A DNA stretch of 64,000 nt from Acidimicrobiales bacterium. GTDB taxonomy: Bacteria > Actinomycetota > Acidimicrobiia > Acidimicrobiales > GCA-2861595. A program made the position numbers and the translations under genes. Below, in pieces: positions 7,440 to 31,155 of this stretch. The notes under the pieces are model-generated. The model was not told where the DNA came from. It worked only from the letters and a program-made list of their open reading frames with translations, and did not search any database. Where the stretch lies: assembly GCA_046596195.1 (NCBI GenBank), contig JBKJNA010000027.1, forward strand, positions 913 through 64,912. Reading direction: 5' to 3'. The stretch's first letter is position 1; each line of letters begins with the position of its first letter.

Positions 7440-7919
7440 ATGGAGGCCGCCCGGCCGGCTATCGAGGCCGACGTGCCCCGGCTGGCCGACCTTTGCCGGA
7501 TGGCCCTCGCCGAGTTGGGGGCCCGGGAGCGGGGCGGGGCGGTGTTCGTGGCGCGCGAGGCGCGGGCCGAACCGGTCGATACCGGGTTGGCGGCCGCGGT
7601 GGCCGACCCCGACGTGGTCGTGATCGCCGGCATGCTCGACGACGTGGTGCTCGGCTATGCCACCGGCCGGGTGGAGGGCCTGCGGGACGGGACCTCGCTC
7701 GGCATCATCGACGAGTTGTTCGTCGAACCGGACGCCCGGGCCATCGGGGTGGGCGAGGCGATGATGAACCAACTGCTCGAGTGGTTCCGGCAGCGGACGT
7801 GCATCGGCGTCGACTCGACGGCCCTGCCCGGGGCGCGCGAGACCAAGAACTTCTTCGAAGAATCCGGCTTTACGGCCCGCCTGCTGGTGATGCACCACCG
7901 GATGAGCCCCCCGCCGTGA
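7440..7919 (+). CDS. GNAT family N-acetyltransferase
   Basis: Contains [20 protein letters not shown] (acetyl-CoA binding Q/RxxGxG/A motif); 159 aa. Confidence 0.8.
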
Positions 7920-7989
7920 CCGGCCCGGGAGGACGGTCCATCAACAGCTCGCTGGTGCAACGTCCCGAAGGGATGGCGCGCCAGTGACC
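7916..7989 (+). repeat. MIRU-like 68-bp interspersed repeat, copy A
   Basis: GTGACCGGCCCGGGAGGACGGTCC...CTGGTGCAACGTCCCGAAGGGATGGCGCGCCA|GTGACC, about 85% identical to the units at 29879-30016. It exactly fills the GNAT-NUDIX gap. Confidence 0.85.
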
Positions 7990-8415
7990 CTGCCCGTGGA
8001 GCACATGCAGACCCTGCGGCCCGAGGTCTGCGTCGGGGCGGTGACCGTCGATGCGGAGCGCCTGCTCCTGGTCCGCCGCGGGCACGGCCCCGCGGCCGGC
8101 GAGTGGTCGGTACCGGGGGGTCGGGTGGAGTGGGGCGAGACGCTGGCCGAGGCGGTCCTGCGCGAGGTGGCGGAGGAGACAGGCCTCGAGGGCATGTGCG
8201 ACGAGCTCATCGGATGGGTCGAGCGCATCGACGACGACCACCACTTCGTGATCCTGGACTTCCGGGTCAGCGTGCTCGACCCGGCCGACCCGGTGGCGGG
8301 ATCGGATGCGGCCGAGGCGGCGTGGGTCCCCCTCATCGACGTGGCCGACCTCAACCTGGTGGACGGCCTGGCGGAGTTCCTCCACGAGCACGGGATCCTC
8401 GACGTCATCACCTGA
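7984..8415 (+). CDS. NUDIX hydrolase
   Basis: Nudix box [24 protein letters not shown]. The start is GTG 7984 (inside the repeat) or ATG 8002. Confidence 0.85.
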
Positions 8416-16210: not shown

Positions 16211-17047
16211 ATGCGCCGGCTCACGATGTTCCTCACCCTCCTCGCAGCGACCGCGTCGTTCGCGGTGGCCGCTCCCGTCCCCGCACACGCGGCGGTGCTC
16301 AGCGCCACGCTGGTTCCCACGCCCACTGGCCTCGGGTACTGGCTGGCCAACGCCGATGGCGGGGTCTTCGCCTACGGCGACGCCCCGTTCCTCGGATCGG
16401 CCGCCGATCTCCGCCTCAACGGCCCGGTGGTCGGGATGGCCCGCACGCCGACCGGGCAGGGCTACTGGCTGGCCACGTCGGGAGGCGGCGTCTTCGCCTA
16501 CGGCGACGCCAACTTCGTGGGATCGGTCGCGTCCATCCAGGTTTCGCAGCCCATCGTCGACATCGTGGCCACCCCCAAGGGCGACGGCTACTGGCTGGTG
16601 TCGGCTGACGGCGGCGTGATCCCGTTCGGCAAGGCCACGTTCCAGGGGTCGCTGTCGACCACCGGCATCAAGCCGACCAAGGCGGTCGTGGGCATGGCGG
16701 CGACGCCGAGCGGGAATGGATACTGGCTGGTGGGGGGCGACGGTGGCGTCTACGCCTACGGCGACGCACGCTTCGTGGGATCGACCGGCGCCCTCCGCCT
16801 GAACCGGCCCGTGGTCGGCATGGCCCGCACGCCGAGCGGCGCCGGCTACTGGCTGGTGGCGTCCGACGGGGGCGTCTTCGCCTTCGGCGACGCCCGTTTC
16901 GCCGGCTCCACCGGGGCGATCCGGCTGAACCAGCCGGTCCTGCGTATGGCGCCCACGCCCTCGGGCGCCGGCTACCTGCTGGTGGCCTCGGACGGCGGCG
17001 TCTTCGCCTTCGGCGACGCCCGCTTCGTGGGGTCCCCCGCCGCCTGA
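16211..17047 (+). CDS. Secreted repeat protein with six ~42-aa GYWLV..DGGVFAFGDA.F.GS blades (putative beta-propeller)
   Basis: Signal peptide, then 6 tandem repeats. AGGAGG sits 7 nt upstream of the ATG. Confidence 0.75.
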   Translation: MRRLTMFLTLLAATASFAVAAPVPAHAAVLSATLVPTPTGLGYWLANADGGVFAYGDAPFLGSAADLRLNGPVVGMARTPTGQGYWLATSGGGVFAYGDANFVGSVASIQVSQPIVDIVATPKGDGYWLVSADGGVIPFGKATFQGSLSTTGIKPTKAVVGMAATPSGNGYWLVGGDGGVYAYGDARFVGSTGALRLNRPVVGMARTPSGAGYWLVASDGGVFAFGDARFAGSTGAIRLNQPVLRMAPTPSGAGYLLVASDGGVFAFGDARFVGSPAA

Positions 17048-26551: not shown

Positions 26552-27619
26552 TCAGCCCTTCTTCCCGCTGCCGGCGAAGGGGGGCTTGACGACCCGGGCG
26601 GGCACGAGGTTGTCCCGGATGTCGACCGCCACCTCGGCCCCGACCTCGGTGGCCGGCGGCACGAAGGCGAGGGCGATGCCCCGCCCCAGCACCGGCGAGA
26701 AGTTGCCGCTGGTGACCTCGCCCGCCGGCTCGCCGTCGACGACCACCGGGTAGCCCTGGCGGGGGGGCTGGCGACCTTCCACCAGCAGGCCGCGCAGGAC
26801 CCGGGCGGGGCCCCGCTCCCGTTCTGCGTGGAGGGCGGCCTTGCCGGCGAAAGCCGGCTTGTCCCACGCCACGACCCAGCCCAGGCCGGCCTGCAGCGGG
26901 GTGATCCCCGCGCCCAGCTCGTGGCCGTGGAGCGGGAGGCCCGCTTCGAGGCGCAGCGTGTCCCGGGCGCCGAGGCCGGCGGGGGTGATCCCGCAGCCCA
27001 TCACCGCCGCCCAGAACGACGGCGCGGCGGTGGCCGGCACGGCGCACTCCACGCCGTCCTCGCCGGTGTAGCCGGTGCCGGCGGCCACGCAGGGGATGCC
27101 CTCCCAGTCGAACTCCGCCACCTCGAAGCGGGGGACGGCGGCGGCCTGCGGCGCAGCGATGGACAGCCACTCGCGTGCCAGCGGGCCCTGGACGGCGATG
27201 ATGGCCCGGCCGGCGGTGACGTCCTCGCCGCCGATGGCCTCGACCACCCTGGACGTGTTGGACGCGTTGGGCATCACATCGAAGGCGCCGTCCGGGCGCC
27301 ACCACACGATGATGTCGTCGAGCACCGAGGCGTCGGCGTCGTCGAGCAGGTGGGTGTACTGGGCCCGGCCGGGGCCGATGCGCCCGAGATCGTTGGTGAG
27401 CACGCCGTTGAGGTGCTCGAAAGCCCCTGCGCCCTCCATCCGTACGGTGCCCAGGTGGCTGACGTCGAACGCCACCGCGCCCTCCCTGCACGCCCGGTGC
27501 TCGGCCAGGGTGCCGGCCGGGTACGACAGCGCCATGTCCCAGCCCCCGAAACTGACCATCTTGGCGCCCAGGGCGCGGTGAGCTGCGTCGAGAGGCGAAC
27601 GGCGCAGGGGGTTGGCCAC
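26552..27619 (-). CDS. gcvT: Glycine cleavage system aminomethyltransferase T
   Basis: Contains SPLDAAHRALGAKMVSFGGWDMALSY...AFDVSHLG...GYTGEDGVE. Confidence 0.9.
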   Translation of the reverse strand: MANPLRRSPLDAAHRALGAKMVSFGGWDMALSYPAGTLAEHRACREGAVAFDVSHLGTVRMEGAGAFEHLNGVLTNDLGRIGPGRAQYTHLLDDADASVLDDIIVWWRPDGAFDVMPNASNTSRVVEAIGGEDVTAGRAIIAVQGPLAREWLSIAAPQAAAVPRFEVAEFDWEGIPCVAAGTGYTGEDGVECAVPATAAPSFWAAVMGCGITPAGLGARDTLRLEAGLPLHGHELGAGITPLQAGLGWVVAWDKPAFAGKAALHAERERGPARVLRGLLVEGRQPPRQGYPVVVDGEPAGEVTSGNFSPVLGRGIALAFVPPATEVGAEVAVDIRDNLVPARVVKPPFAGSGKKG

Positions 27620-27689
27620 CTCGTCAGCCTACGGCCGGCGCCTACCCCCGGCACCGATGCCTACACGCCACCGGGGGCGGTAGCGGCCT

Positions 27690-28274
27690 TCAGTCGCCGA
27701 CGGCGAAGTCGAGAGAACGTGGCTCCTGGTCGTCGAGGGCGGCGTCGGCCAGCTGCGACGGCTCCTCGAGCCCGTATTTCACCAGCAGGTTGAGGTAGTC
27801 CCGCTGGTAGAAGATCTTGACGTTGACGTCCGGGTACTGCTCACGGAGGCGGCGGATCTTGGCGTTCTTCTTCGTGACCAGCTTCTGGTTGAGCGTGGTG
27901 ATCTCGATGTACAGCTCGTAGGCCGGCAGGTAGAAGTCGGGACGGAAGGCCTGCACCGGCTTGCCCACCCGGTCGTAGGCGAGAGTGAACTCCGTGGGCT
28001 CGTAGTCCCACGTGATGCCGTAGAAGTCGAGGAGCTTGGCGAACTGGCGCTCCGAGTTGTGGGCGAAGCGGACCTGTTCGTGGGGGAGCGGCTCCCCGTC
28101 CAGGGTGCTATCCCCGGCTGCCGGACCTGGCCAGGCTGCTGCCGTCGCCCTCTCCCTCCGCGTTGACGACGACGGGCGCCGGCACCTCGGGGGCGGGCGC
28201 CAGGTCGGTGATGGCGGCGTCGAGCTCGCGCACGACGCCGGCCAGGGGCACGATGTTGAGCACGCCCTGGCCAC
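27690..28274 (-). CDS. Conserved hypothetical protein with a PD-(D/E)xK-like core; start codon unresolved
   Basis: The C-terminal 135 aa are strongly coding (FAKLLDFYGITWDYEP...RPDFYLP...ELYIEITTLNQK). The only ATG/GTG/TTG in frame upstream of the conserved part is GTG 28274, which is 167 nt inside the MerR gene. Confidence 0.55.
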   Translation of the reverse strand: MARACSTSCPWPASCASSTPPSPTWRPPPRCRRPSSSTRRERATAAAWPGPAAGDSTLDGEPLPHEQVRFAHNSERQFAKLLDFYGITWDYEPTEFTLAYDRVGKPVQAFRPDFYLPAYELYIEITTLNQKLVTKKNAKIRRLREQYPDVNVKIFYQRDYLNLLVKYGLEEPSQLADAALDDQEPRSLDFAVGD

Positions 28275-28608
28275 CCTTGAGCAGGTCGATGATCTCCTCG
28301 CCCGACTGGGCCAGCACGGACTGGGACCCGTGCAGGACCAAGTTGGCGGTTGCTACCTCGGCGCCGCTGTGGCGCAGCACCTCCAGGGCGCGCCGGGCCG
28401 ACTGGAGCGACACGCCGGCGTCGAGCAGGCGCTTGATCACCTTCAACTCGAGCAGGTCCCGGTAGGAGTACCTGCGCTGCGTGCCGCTCCCGCGCGCCTC
28501 GCTGATCGACGGACGCAACAGATCGGTACGGGCCCAGTAATCCAGCTGGCGGTAGGTGATCCCCACGATCTTGCAGACCTGCGGACCGCGGAACCCATCT
28601 TCAGGCAT
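28108..28608 (-). CDS. MerR family transcriptional regulator (Rv1830-like position)
   Basis: HTH sequence VCKIVGITYRQLDYWARTDLL...RRYSYRDLLELKVIKRLLDAGVSL. AGGAGG lies upstream of the ATG. Confidence 0.85.
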   Translation of the reverse strand: MPEDGFRGPQVCKIVGITYRQLDYWARTDLLRPSISEARGSGTQRRYSYRDLLELKVIKRLLDAGVSLQSARRALEVLRHSGAEVATANLVLHGSQSVLAQSGEEIIDLLKGGQGVLNIVPLAGVVRELDAAITDLAPAPEVPAPVVVNAEGEGDGSSLARSGSRG

Positions 28609-28646
28609 CGGGGAAGTGCCCTCCTGTGCCGGCTACGCCGGATGGC

Positions 28647-28671
28647 CCACTGTGACCCGGTGCCACAGTGG
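28647..28671. promoter_or_regulatory. Perfect dyad CCACTGTG-N9-CACAGTGG upstream of the MerR gene
   Basis: 8-bp arms at 28647-28654 and 28664-28671, 39-63 nt upstream of the MerR ATG. The right arm overlaps the first 17-bp repeat unit. Confidence 0.5.
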
Positions 28672-28733
28672 CTGAATTACGACAGTGGCTGAATTACGAC
28701 AGTGGCTGAATTACAACAGTGGCGGAATTACAC
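28666..28733. repeat. 17-bp tandem repeat x4 (CAGTGGCTGAATTACGA)
   Basis: Units at 28666, 28683, 28700 and 28717. The first two are identical, the third has 1 change and the fourth has 3 changes. The sequence is AT-rich relative to the genome. Confidence 0.9.
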
Positions 28734-28756
28734 CGTTGGAACCACGGTACGACGCC

Positions 28757-28793
28757 CCGGCCCGCCCGTCAACGACCGGCCCGGGCGGGCAGG
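28757..28793 (-). terminator. GC-rich hairpin downstream of the bifunctional-nuclease gene
   Basis: GCCCGCCCG-N13-CGGGCGGGC forms a 9-bp perfect stem, extendable to 12. There is no U-tract. Confidence 0.35.
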
Positions 28794-28797
28794 CGGC

Positions 28798-29313
28798 TCA
28801 GGAGCTGAAGTCCTCGGGGCGGATGCCCTCGATGAACTGGCGGAACTGCGAGACGAGCTCGTCGGGAGCGGTCTCGTCGTCGTCGTCCTCGGCGTCGAGC
28901 ACCACGCCGGCGGCGTCGAGGAGGTCGTCCTCAGCGAAGATGGGCGTGCCCGTGCGGGCGGCCAGGGCGATGGCGTCGGACGGTCGGGCCGAAATGACCT
29001 GGGACTCGCCGCCCTGGCGCAGGTGCAGCTCGGCGTAGTAGGTGCCGCTGCGTCCGTCCTCGCCCATCCGAAGCTCGGTGACGACGACCCGCTCCAGCGT
29101 GGCGCCCAGGGCGACGAGGAGGTCCCGCATGAGGTCGTGGGTCATGGGCCGCGGCGGCACGACCTTCTGCAGGGCGAACGCGATGGCGGTGGCCTCGGGC
29201 GCGCCGATGAAGATGGGCAGCGTTCGCCGGGCGCCCTCGACCTCCTGGAGTAACACGACCGGATTGTTGGTGGGCAGCTCAACGCGTACTGCGGCGAGGT
29301 GCATCTCCACCAT
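28798..29313 (-). CDS. Bifunctional nuclease family protein (DUF151; Rv1829-like)
   Basis: Contains NNPVVLLQE...RTLPIFIGAPEATAIAFAL...RPMTHDL...ARPSDAIALA and an acidic tail. Confidence 0.8.
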   Translation of the reverse strand: MVEMHLAAVRVELPTNNPVVLLQEVEGARRTLPIFIGAPEATAIAFALQKVVPPRPMTHDLMRDLLVALGATLERVVVTELRMGEDGRSGTYYAELHLRQGGESQVISARPSDAIALAARTGTPIFAEDDLLDAAGVVLDAEDDDDETAPDELVSQFRQFIEGIRPEDFSS

Positions 29314-29322
29314 GAGCCAACC

Positions 29323-29880
29323 CTACCGTGCGAAGAACTGCTCCACGTGCGCATCGGGATCGGCCCGCAGCGCCGCCAGGTCGCCCGCCGCCACGAGTTC
29401 CAGGTTCCGGTAGCGCTCGGCGAAATCGAGGCCGTAGCCGACCACGAAGTCGTCGCCGATGGTGAACCCGACGAAGCGCACCGGCGTGGGCACGATGCGC
29501 CGGGTGGCCTTGTCGAGCAACGCGCAGGCCTCGAGGCTGCGCGGGCCGCGCCGGCCCAGCTGGCCGAGCAGGTAGGTGAGGGTGAGCCCGGTGTCGACGA
29601 TGTCCTCGACCAGCACCACGTCGCGCCCGGCGATGTCGATGTCGAGGTCCTTCACGAGGCGGACCCGGCCGGTGTCGGGCGCGTACGACGAGATGGCCAG
29701 GAAGTCCACCTCGGGGACGATCGACAGCGCCCGCACCAGGTCGGCCAGGAACGGGACGCTGCCCTTGAGCACGGCGACGAGCACCACGCCGTCGCCGTAG
29801 ACAGCCGAGATCTCGTCCGCCAACCGGGCCACGCCGGCGCGCAGCTCGTGGACCGGGATCAGGACCCGGGCGTCGGTCAT
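29323..29880 (-). CDS. hpt: Hypoxanthine phosphoribosyltransferase
   Basis: PRPP motif VVLVEDIVDTGLTL, with KGS..F.ADL and YGLDF. The in-frame ATG at 29880 gives 185 aa; the ORF extension to 29979 is repeat-derived. Confidence 0.9.
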   Translation of the reverse strand: MTDARVLIPVHELRAGVARLADEISAVYGDGVVLVAVLKGSVPFLADLVRALSIVPEVDFLAISSYAPDTGRVRLVKDLDIDIAGRDVVLVEDIVDTGLTLTYLLGQLGRRGPRSLEACALLDKATRRIVPTPVRFVGFTIGDDFVVGYGLDFAERYRNLELVAAGDLAALRADPDAHVEQFFAR

Positions 29881-30033
29881 GACCGGCCCGGGAGGACGGT
29901 CCCATGAACAACTCGCTGGTGCGACATCACGAAGGGATGGTGCACCAGTGACCGGCCCGGGAGGACGGTCCATGAGCAACTCAGTGGTGCGCCATGCCGA
30001 AGGGCATGGTGCACCAGTGACCGGTCCGGCCCT
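29879..30033 (+). repeat. MIRU-like repeat array: two 69-bp units plus a 17-bp partial unit
   Basis: Units at 29879-29947 and 29948-30016, with partial GTGACCGGTCCGGCCC at 30017-30033. The orientation is the same as copy A, but the flanking genes are on the opposite strand. Confidence 0.85.
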
Positions 30034-30090
30034 TCTGGTCGGTGAAACAGTGCGAAGTTCACACCGATTCGCCGACCGGAACGCGGCGGC

Positions 30091-31155
30091 TCACCCGCCC
30101 GAGAGGCGGCGCAGCGACTGGCGCAACACGGCGGCCCGCAGGCTCTGCCCCAGGCGGGTGAGCTCTTCGAGGGACTCCACCGCCTGACGGCGGGCCTCGG
30201 GGTTGCGCTGCTTGAGCAGCGGCGTGACGATCTGCTCGAACAGGCCGGCCTCGCGTTCGGCCGAGTTCTTGTAGATCCGCAGGTGACGGCCCTCAATGCC
30301 GAAGCTGGCGAAGCCCACGGCCAGGTTGGCCACGACCAGGGCCTCCTCGTCGTAGTACACGGTGCCGGCCACGGGCCGGCCGGCGATGAACCCGTACCTC
30401 TCCAGCTCCCGAAGGCGGTCGTAGGGCAGGCCGGTGGCCGACGCCAGTTCCTCGAGGGAGAGGCTCACGCCGCTCATGCCGGCCGACAGGCTGGTGGCAT
30501 GGGCGGCGGGGGGCGGCGGCCTGGTGGGCGGTGTCAGCGGTTGAGACGGCTCGACCGCCGGCGGGGGGGCTGCAGCAGGGGCGGGGCCAGGGGCCACTAC
30601 GGGTGGGGCGGCCATCGCCACCTCGGCCGCCGGGACAGTGGGCTTGTGGCCGGCGGGGGCCGGCGGAGCGGCAACCGGAGCCGCCGGAGCGGGCTGGGCG
30701 GCAACCGGTGGCGGTGAAGCGAGCGGGCCGGGGGCGGCGGCCGGCGACGCGGGCGCCGCGGCAACCGGGGCGGGAGGAGGCGGGGCGGTGGCGGCAACCG
30801 GCCCGGGGCCCGGTGGCGCCACCGGAGGTGCGTCGACCACGGCGGTGGCGAGACTGTCCCTCCCGGCAGCGGGCACCGGCCCGCCGTCGTCGGCGCCGGC
30901 GTCGTCGCCCGTGCTCACACCGAGGCGGCCCTTGATCACCTTCAGGGGCAGGAAGTGCTCGCGCTGCTGGCGAAGGATCCACCGCAGCCGGTCGACGTCG
31001 GGCTCGTAGAACTTCCGGTACCCCGAGGCCGTTCGCTCGGGGTCGAGCAGGCCCTGGCTCTCCAGAAAGCGGATCTTCGAGATGGTGACGTCGGGGAACT
31101 CGTCCTTGAGGAGGGACAGCACCTCACCGATGGACAGGTACGCCCGGTCCCCCAC
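30091..31155 (-). CDS. MerR family regulator with a long Pro/Ala-rich linker (Rv1828 / FtsR-like)
   Basis: Contains LSIGEVLSLLKDEFPDVTISKIRFLESQGLL...SGYRKFYEPDVDRLRWIL, and a C-terminal second MerR-like dimerisation region. Confidence 0.8.
   Translation of the reverse strand: MGDRAYLSIGEVLSLLKDEFPDVTISKIRFLESQGLLDPERTASGYRKFYEPDVDRLRWILRQQREHFLPLKVIKGRLGVSTGDDAGADDGGPVPAAGRDSLATAVVDAPPVAPPGPGPVAATAPPPPAPVAAAPASPAAAPGPLASPPPVAAQPAPAAPVAAPPAPAGHKPTVPAAEVAMAAPPVVAPGPAPAAAPPPAVEPSQPLTPPTRPPPPAAHATSLSAGMSGVSLSLEELASATGLPYDRLRELERYGFIAGRPVAGTVYYDEEALVVANLAVGFASFGIEGRHLRIYKNSAEREAGLFEQIVTPLLKQRNPEARRQAVESLEELTRLGQSLRAAVLRQSLRRLSGG

Follow-up and report, generated by a model that had tools for sequence, protein, structure and literature searches.

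The stretch of DNA analyzed here, called the window in what follows, comprises 64,000 nucleotides from a genome of the Acidimicrobiales and carries, ahead of a gene for a MerR-family regulator, four tandem copies of a 17-bp unit followed by a dyad. The gene (28108..28608, minus strand; Pfam MerR_1, E=8.6e-16) is the positional orthologue of Rv1830 (McdR/ResR) and of cg1633. We consider it likely that the four repeats are an amplification, in one lineage, of part of an operator, and that this operator is the binding site of the gene's own product, a regulator of the McdR/ResR type. The initial annotation had centered on the repeat, but the repeat makes up only part of the conserved unit, a double palindrome of 28 bp.

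The operator emerges when the window is compared with related loci, 80 from genomes and 80 from metagenomes among the matches listed (the metagenome set included few members of the close clade); individual loci of this comparison are given below by their L numbers. An element of the form TnACA-N5-GTARYTAC-N5-TGTGA, with fixed geometry, lies upstream of the MerR gene in about 130 lineages of the Acidimicrobiia: it is present in 70 of the 80 genome loci and in about 61 further metagenome lineages. Positions C4, G11, A13, T16 and C18 are invariant, and A3, T12, T24, G25 and T26 are nearly so. In the window, the ancestral operator reads TTCCA ACGGT GTAATTCC GCCAC TGTTG (28714..28741, minus strand) and consists of two McdR-type boxes at a 14-bp offset, with an overlap of 4 bp. 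Against the class-wide pattern it reaches 14 of 18, and its two boxes have 3 and 4 mismatches, respectively, to the 12 specified bases of AATnACAnnnnTGTnATT. In the variable columns of the element, 26-40 of 69 sequences (38-58%) are unpaired, and the covariation score is 0.180 as compared with 0.166 in shuffles, a value reached by 76 of the 500 shuffles; a separate count of the pairs gave a concordant result. Such conservation in blocks, with fixed spacing but no covariation, speaks for a protein-binding site rather than an RNA hairpin, and the covariation counts rule out the hairpin reading of the 28-bp element.

The published motif that fits this element is that of McdR, which binds AATnACA-N4-TGTnATT around the start site of whiB2 (PMC9040748); the binding has been confirmed by a second group (PMC10336103). 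The first box can be parsed as xxT1-n-A3C4A5, N4, y10G11T12-n-A14y15T16 and the second as A13A14y15-n-A17C18r19, N4, T24G25T26-n-A28xx, so that the inverted repeat is of the McdR type with a fixed 4-bp spacer, and this geometry is invariant across the class. The low-information columns of the element (2, 6-9, 20-23 and 27) are exactly the 'n' positions of the McdR motif; columns 2 and 27 are variable although the pattern used for selection scores them. When the McdR 18-mer is searched at <=3 mismatches, the element is matched in 56 of the 70 loci, with 8 matches in 233 kb elsewhere; at <=4 mismatches there are 123 matches in 69 of the 70 loci, or about 2 per element. Within 300 nt upstream of the gene, a match at <=3 mismatches is found in 123 of 160 distinct loci, compared with 0.0235 per 300 nt elsewhere. 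The only match at this level in the window is at 28726-28743, inside the ancestral element, and no further McdR box or core, and no WhiB gene, was found elsewhere in the 64 kb. The sites known from Mycobacterium tuberculosis are AATCACATCAGTGTCATT (whiB2, 1 nt from the transcription start site, TSS) and AATTACAGGTGTGTAATT (Rv0996), and their half-sites AATCACA (whiB2) and TGTAATT (Rv0996) equal the arms and core of the operator. The suggestion that the repeat units contain regulator half-sites is upheld by their TGTAATT and CGTAATT, which match the published half-site TGTnATT. A cognate regulator of the Rv1830 type is encoded in the genome, as judged by the MerR_1 domain and gene order, and the MerR protein named in the initial annotation would, from sequence, be the best candidate for the binder.

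Other arrangements occur among the compared loci. Where the double box is missing, the same promoter bears one McdR-type box, roughly 70-85 nt ahead of the MerR gene; examples are L066:1429-1446, with a perfect AATTACACTGTTGTAATT, and L072, L076, L082, L163, L165, L166 and L169, with AACTACACTCGTGTAGTc. Three McdR-type boxes stand in a row in L079 (about 1410-1455) and L044 (1405-1447), with a period of 14 bp and not 17 (one example is TCACC-CCGT-TGTAA, TTCCA-ACTC-TGTAG, TTCAA-CCTG-TTGTC). In the most distant genome loci (L065, L068, L080, L083 and L084, 52-56% identity) the MerR gene is apparently leaderless, with a -10 of TAGCCT, TAGCGT or TAGTGT located 7-10 nt before the start codon and no McdR-type box; thus, an operator on the gene's own promoter is not universal among the homologues.

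The predicted promoter of the MerR gene has the -35 hexamer TTGACG (28767..28772, minus strand) and, after a 17-nt spacer, the -10 hexamer TACCGT of the TAnnnT type (28744..28749, minus strand). It was read by comparison with relatives, and only in this way: a scan of 28300-29100 for consensus promoters and terminators found nothing, the promoter being missed because TACCGT matches TATAAT at too few positions. All clade members have the -10 as TACCGT, TACCCT, TACGGT or TAGCCT. More widely, 74 of 129 distinct lineages have TTGAC-N17-20-TAnnnT within 45 nt upstream of the 28-bp element, with a spacer of 17 nt, or of 18 nt in a minority of lineages. In 87 of the 129, the distance from the predicted TAnnnT -10 to the start of the element is -3 to +13 nt, so that the element covers the predicted TSS, which in the window would lie at about 28737/28736. 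Since the element comes right after the -10, the array is in the predicted transcribed leader; the initial annotation had it in the promoter region, but rather than preceding the promoter it follows the -10. The same annotation described a hairpin that ends the nuclease gene upstream. There is a GC-rich inverted repeat after the stop codon of that gene (28757..28793, minus strand; minimum free energy -31.9 kcal/mol), but it has no T-run, folds no better than shuffles (z=0.00) and encloses the -35 box of the MerR promoter, and an intrinsic terminator at this place is rejected on the first two grounds.

Across the Acidimicrobiia, then, the predicted promoter is directly followed by the 28-bp element, which can be read as two head-to-tail McdR boxes (TnACA-N4-TGTnA, with AAT/ATT flanks) that share a TGTAATTACA-like core. 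The regulator would most likely bind over the predicted TSS, probably as two dimers, and repress its own transcription. Which protein binds, and whether it represses, we infer from sequence comparison; the proposal of self-repression is modeled on McdR at whiB2 and on BldO at whiB. BldO is a MerR-family repressor of Streptomyces whiB, with a footprint of about 40 nt centered on TGxAATTxCA over the -10 and TSS (PMC5485038). In the lineage of the window, three further tandem copies of operator positions 10-26 have arisen, for which replication slippage is the most likely cause; two substitutions occurred in the process, and the leader became longer by 51 nt. The extra copies are probably weak or neutral, and would act at most as low-affinity sites in the leader. 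For mycobacteria or Streptomyces, no such double operator of the McdR type at the start site of the regulator gene itself has been described.

The array itself is easily verified. Four head-to-tail 17-bp units at 28666-28733 have 0, 0, 1 and 3 changes relative to CAGTGGCTGAATTACGA, and no further copies of the unit are present elsewhere in the 64-kb window. Only 0.01 matches are expected in shuffled sequence, where 0 of 100 shuffles reach 4 matches, and Tandem Repeats Finder (TRF) reports 28665-28731 with period 17, 3.9 copies and a score of 120. Position, unit length and change counts had all been given correctly, as had the distance of 58-125 nt from the MerR ATG at 28608 and the AT-richness of the units in a genome of about 70% GC (the GC fraction over 28650-28749 is 0.52, compared with ~0.70). 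Two plus-strand open reading frames (ORFs), 28685-29038 and 28702-29253, are present in a mechanical sense; both are antisense through the bifunctional-nuclease gene (Pfam E=5e-37), so it was reasonable to label them artefacts.

Comparison with relatives indicates which of the units is the original one. Unit 1, TGTAATTCCGCCACTGT (28716..28732, minus strand), equals operator positions 10-26 and is identical to the single copy in L001/L002, L085, L171 and L172; although the initial annotation counted it as the most diverged, it is the ancestral one. A relative that is 96% identical and is represented by two independent assemblies (L001 and L002) has one unit TGTAATTCCGCCACTGT and then, directly, a perfect dyad with 10-bp arms. 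L174 and L090 have a single unit as well. Units 2-4 (TGTAATTCAGCCACTGT, then CGTAATTCAGCCACTGT twice; 28665..28715, minus strand) are a lineage-specific tandem insertion of 51 nt, and in an alignment with five single-copy relatives this one clean insertion of 51 columns is how the window differs. All three extra units have A instead of C at operator position 18, where C is found in 70 of 70 lineages, and two of these units also have a T-to-C change; the pattern fits stepwise duplication and mutation. At the junctions between units, a frame of 28 bp happens to be restored around every extra core, and C4, A5 and T24-T26 fall into register, but these derived frames score 12-13 of 18 as compared with 14 of 18 for the ancestral one, and have 4-6 mismatches of 12 per box as compared with 3 and 4. 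With A in place of the invariant C18, each extra core retains one good half-site (yGTAATT) in a degraded frame.

Copy number varies among relatives, as the initial annotation anticipated in suggesting a slippage-prone repeat: the counts are 1, 2 (a 16-bp unit), 2 (decayed) and 4, with more than two copies in only one lineage. The two 16-bp copies, in L003/L004, are in another register and thus represent an independent event. L088/L089 have a second, decayed 17-bp copy, and L042 has a decayed 17-bp duplication. Overall, a clear tandem duplication over the operator core is seen in 3 of about 135 lineages (3 of 74 in the first set), compared with 1.1% at random sites of the same loci, and recurrent, selected duplication of the operator is ruled out by this comparison. 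Indels at the junction between the operator and the following stem-loop occur in 4 of 10 clade members, and this boundary looks like an indel hot spot. At the junction where the window, L088 and L003 carry duplications, L087 has an unrelated GC-rich insertion of about 45 nt (L087:1290-1340), which follows GTCGCTGG. The simplest reading is that slippage produced the array sporadically and that any role under selection is small or absent; it could conceivably have some modest influence on autoregulation or the leader.

The strongest competing explanation is that the array has been selected as an iteron-like device, in which cooperative or titrating binding of the regulator gives a new autoregulatory set-point. 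Each unit does match 5-6 of the 6 bases of the half-site yGTAATT, and with a period of 17 bp the CCA of GCCAC and the TGT at the end of each unit fall in register with the next frame, at C4, A5 and T24-T26. L088 and L042 have duplications in this 17-bp register too, and L079 and L044 provide natural three-box arrangements, though with the 14-bp period that the array does not share. On the other hand, five close relatives manage with a single unit, the frequency of duplication is near background, every derived copy has lost the C at position 18 and has box mismatches of 4-6 of 12, and the duplications in L088 and L042 are decaying with no sign of selection. We judge selection of the array to be unlikely, and the iteron-like design put forward in the initial annotation is not borne out.

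The binder could also be a different regulator, acting on the element or on the dyad: WhiA/WhiB2 (GACAC, cGACACGc), a protein of the CRP/GlxR type (TGTGA-N6-TCACA) or FtsR. WhiB2 activates mcdR in mycobacteria via TCGACACGC, WhiAB activates bldO, the left arm of the element reads TGACACG in several lineages, and the clade dyad reads TGTGA-N7-TCACA in L001. However, GACAC does not qualify as the conserved arm, with a G at position 2 in just 17 of 70 lineages, and the mycobacterial WhiB2 site is upstream of the -10, whereas the element here is downstream of it. For a CRP-like dyad the spacer has the wrong length (N7/N8 rather than N6), and relatives have TCCCA, TCGCG and TCCCG as drifted forms of the right arm; this candidate is ruled out on both counts, and FtsR on its motif, AACCCTAAAGTAAAGGTTGAGGGTA, which is unrelated. 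The McdR motif, in contrast, fits both the specified and the unspecified columns, and we regard binding by another regulator as quite improbable.

A third possibility is that the repeats and the stem-loop act at the RNA level in the 5' leader, through stability, translation or attenuation. Here the dyad has to be considered more closely. As initially described, it is perfect at 28647-28671 (CCACTGTG-N9-CACAGTGG); as a stem-loop on the minus strand (28647..28671), CCACTGTGGC-ACCGG-GTCACAGTGG, it has a 10-bp stem with one G.U pair and is part of the centroid structure. The left arm is formed by the last unit's right part (from the operator, GCCAC TGTGA C), and the right arm by an inverted copy downstream. 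The initial annotation had the unit nearest the gene complete the dyad, but the dyad is not made by the array: it is already present in single-copy relatives, is older than the array and is specific to the clade. By itself it is also unremarkable. The window contains 76 perfect 8-bp inverted repeats with a 3-12 nt spacer, compared with about 45 in first-order Markov simulations, and with such repeats so common the dyad alone means little; its weight comes solely from its retention in close relatives. The stem is 10 of 10 in the single-copy L001 and 8-10 bp, with U.G or mismatched variants, in L085, L171, L172, L088, L087 and L003. The right arm is not kept as an McdR half-site, and the spacer is N7-N8.

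In favor of an RNA element, both array and dyad fall within the predicted transcribed leader, whose predicted fold has the 10-bp stem as its dominant feature, some of the changes in the right arm are U.G-compatible (L171, L172, L087 and L088), and a second small hairpin, CCGGC-GTA-GCCGG (28629..28641, minus strand), precedes the Shine-Dalgarno sequence AGGAGGG (28619-28625) and is kept with loop changes in L001, L085, L087, L088 and L172. Against it, the class-wide element shows no covariation, the folding energy of the leader is ordinary (z=-0.11 in the window, -1.51 in L001), and a scan of 27000-31000 against Rfam at E<=1 gave no match. The stem is confined to one clade, being absent from L174, L090 and the rest of the class, and within that clade (about 10 lineages, too small a sample for compensatory change) the U.G-compatible drift is accompanied by a mismatching C in the stem of two lineages. 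We hold a function at the RNA level to be very unlikely; the dyad could be a stem-loop of the leader or a relic, or could account for the indel hot spot. It is scarcely credible that the extra copies were made during assembly, even though the source is a metagenome-assembled genome, given that the 68-bp array is shorter than typical reads, that its copies differ at two positions in a stepwise order, and that other duplications at the same place recur in independent assemblies (L003 = L004 and L088 = L089, from different samples).

Several points weigh against our preferred explanation, an operator of the McdR/ResR type that is bound by the gene's own product. The operator of the window is a weak instance, with TTCCA as left arm, A3 changed to C, and 3 and 4 mismatches in its boxes, and in the class consensus the inner half-sites read CGTnA, not TGTnA. 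The pattern by which instances were chosen scores 18 of the 28 columns, so conservation is somewhat inflated; a listing selected by the core only shows the operator arms independently of that pattern. In the organisms profiled, moreover, the regulator's own promoter is not a reported target: chromatin immunoprecipitation sequencing (ChIP-seq) of BldO in S. venezuelae identified whiB only (PMC5485038), IDAP-seq of ResR in M. tuberculosis gave four sites, and DIP-seq in M. smegmatis gave five enriched peaks, of which three are named, the regions upstream of whiB2, MSMEG_0833 and MSMEG_5468 (PMC9040748). Finally, the orthology of the MerR protein with Rv1830 is argued from synteny and family membership, and that of BldO with McdR is our own suggestion; no link between BldO and McdR/ResR was found in the literature searched.

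Classical MerR-type activator operators (those of MerR, CueR and SoxR) sit inside an over-long spacer of 19-20 bp between the -35 and -10. The system described here resembles them in pairing a MerR-family winged-helix protein with a dyad-symmetric site, but the 17-bp spacer and the location of the site downstream of the -10 are the geometry of a repressor, and the site is not a classical MerR activator operator. It is closest to the McdR/ResR box (whiB2, Rv0996, MSMEG_0833; PMC9040748, PMC10336103), with which it shares the TCACA/TGTGA arms, the TGTAATT/AATTACA core, the fixed N4 spacer, the inverted orientation, the predicted placement at the TSS, the regulator family and the gene block. It differs in its fusion of two boxes, offset by 14 bp, in having mostly CGTnA as inner half-sites, in its location on the regulator's own promoter, which is not a reported target in mycobacteria, and, in the window, in being partly amplified. 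The 10-mer of the BldO operator at S. venezuelae whiB p2 (PMC5485038) is the idealized center of the double box (TGTAATTACA). The ancestral core in the window, TGTAATTCCG, matches 7 of its 8 specified bases; the class consensus CGTAACTACG fits less well, with <=2 mismatches in 33 of 70 loci, and whiB is reported as the only target of BldO.

Arrays in other systems offer looser parallels. Plasmid iterons are likewise short, head-to-tail, AT-containing units beside a dyad, but they are repeats at an origin, with a rep gene and a kept copy number; the array here has no replication gene or origin, lies in a chromosomal housekeeping block and is not conserved. BldC is reported to be a MerR-like protein that multimerizes on AATT-containing direct repeats (PMC5859096); the unit here is instead a fragment of a palindromic operator, and the regulator is a full-length MerR protein as compared with the 68 residues of BldC. 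Slipped-strand variable number tandem repeats (VNTRs) are similar in their near-perfect head-to-tail units, in a copy number of 1, 2 or 4 that differs among close relatives, and in a second expansion nearby, and dissimilar in that the units have already diverged at two positions and exceed two copies in one lineage only.

The genes around the operator form a block, all on the minus strand, in the order OdhI/GarA-type FHA/zinc-ribbon protein, FtsR, phosphoribosyltransferase, bifunctional (BFN) nuclease, MerR gene, small ORF, gcvT and gcvP. The FtsR neighbor is an NCBIfam equivalog (220.9 bits). From the FHA protein to the MerR gene, this is the order of a conserved actinobacterial block known from cg1630-cg1633 and Rv1827-Rv1830 (PMC6683498), which makes the MerR gene the positional orthologue of Rv1830 (McdR/ResR). 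The closest proteins to the MerR protein of the window are from metagenome-assembled genomes of the Acidimicrobiales, and a structure of a close homologue was not found in the PDB, where the best match is Alr3614 (E=7e-6).

Other repeats are present in the window. Between the ftsR stop (30091) and the phosphoribosyltransferase start there is an insertion of about 185 nt (29880-30050, minus strand) relative to L001, in which the spacer is 25 nt; it is a 69-bp x 2.2 tandem repeat (TRF score 237), lineage-specific and 1.2 kb from the array. Its 69-bp unit contains the hairpin GGTGCACCATGCC-CTTC-GGCATGGCGCACC, and the insertion ends with the ancestral CCCGGGCCGGTCA ahead of the ATG. The TTG-initiated ORF 29323-29979 (218 aa) is over-extended, the relatives having 185 aa. 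This unit, of about 70 bp, is found once more (GGTCACTGGCGCGCCATCCCTTCGGGACGTTGCACCAGCGAGCTGTTGATGGACCGTCCTCCCGGGCCGGTCA) at 7918-7990 (minus strand), and with three copies it belongs to a small family of dispersed, REP- or MITE-like repeats in this genome. At 16353-17044 there is a 126-bp x 5.4 tandem repeat (TRF score 413, 67% matches), probably a coding region for a repeat domain.

Taken alone, the array is an ordinary, lineage-specific product of slippage. A more far-reaching idea is that the Acidimicrobiia use negative autoregulation through a composite operator whose TnACA/TGTnA half-sites, at a 14-bp period, unify the mycobacterial 18-mer with TGxAATTxCA, and that the amplification is adaptive and resets the set-point; as a whole we find this rather unlikely. 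The interest of the class-wide element comes from the proteins to which it leads. McdR/ResR is an essential regulator of division that, in M. tuberculosis, is under positive selection and linked to antibiotic resilience, and its presumed Streptomyces counterpart BldO gates sporulation. The double box with its fixed geometry predicts direct autoregulation and binding by two dimers and could reconcile the two published sites, and the array, together with its single-copy relatives, is a natural allelic series (1, 2 and 4 cores) for operator copy number in the leader.

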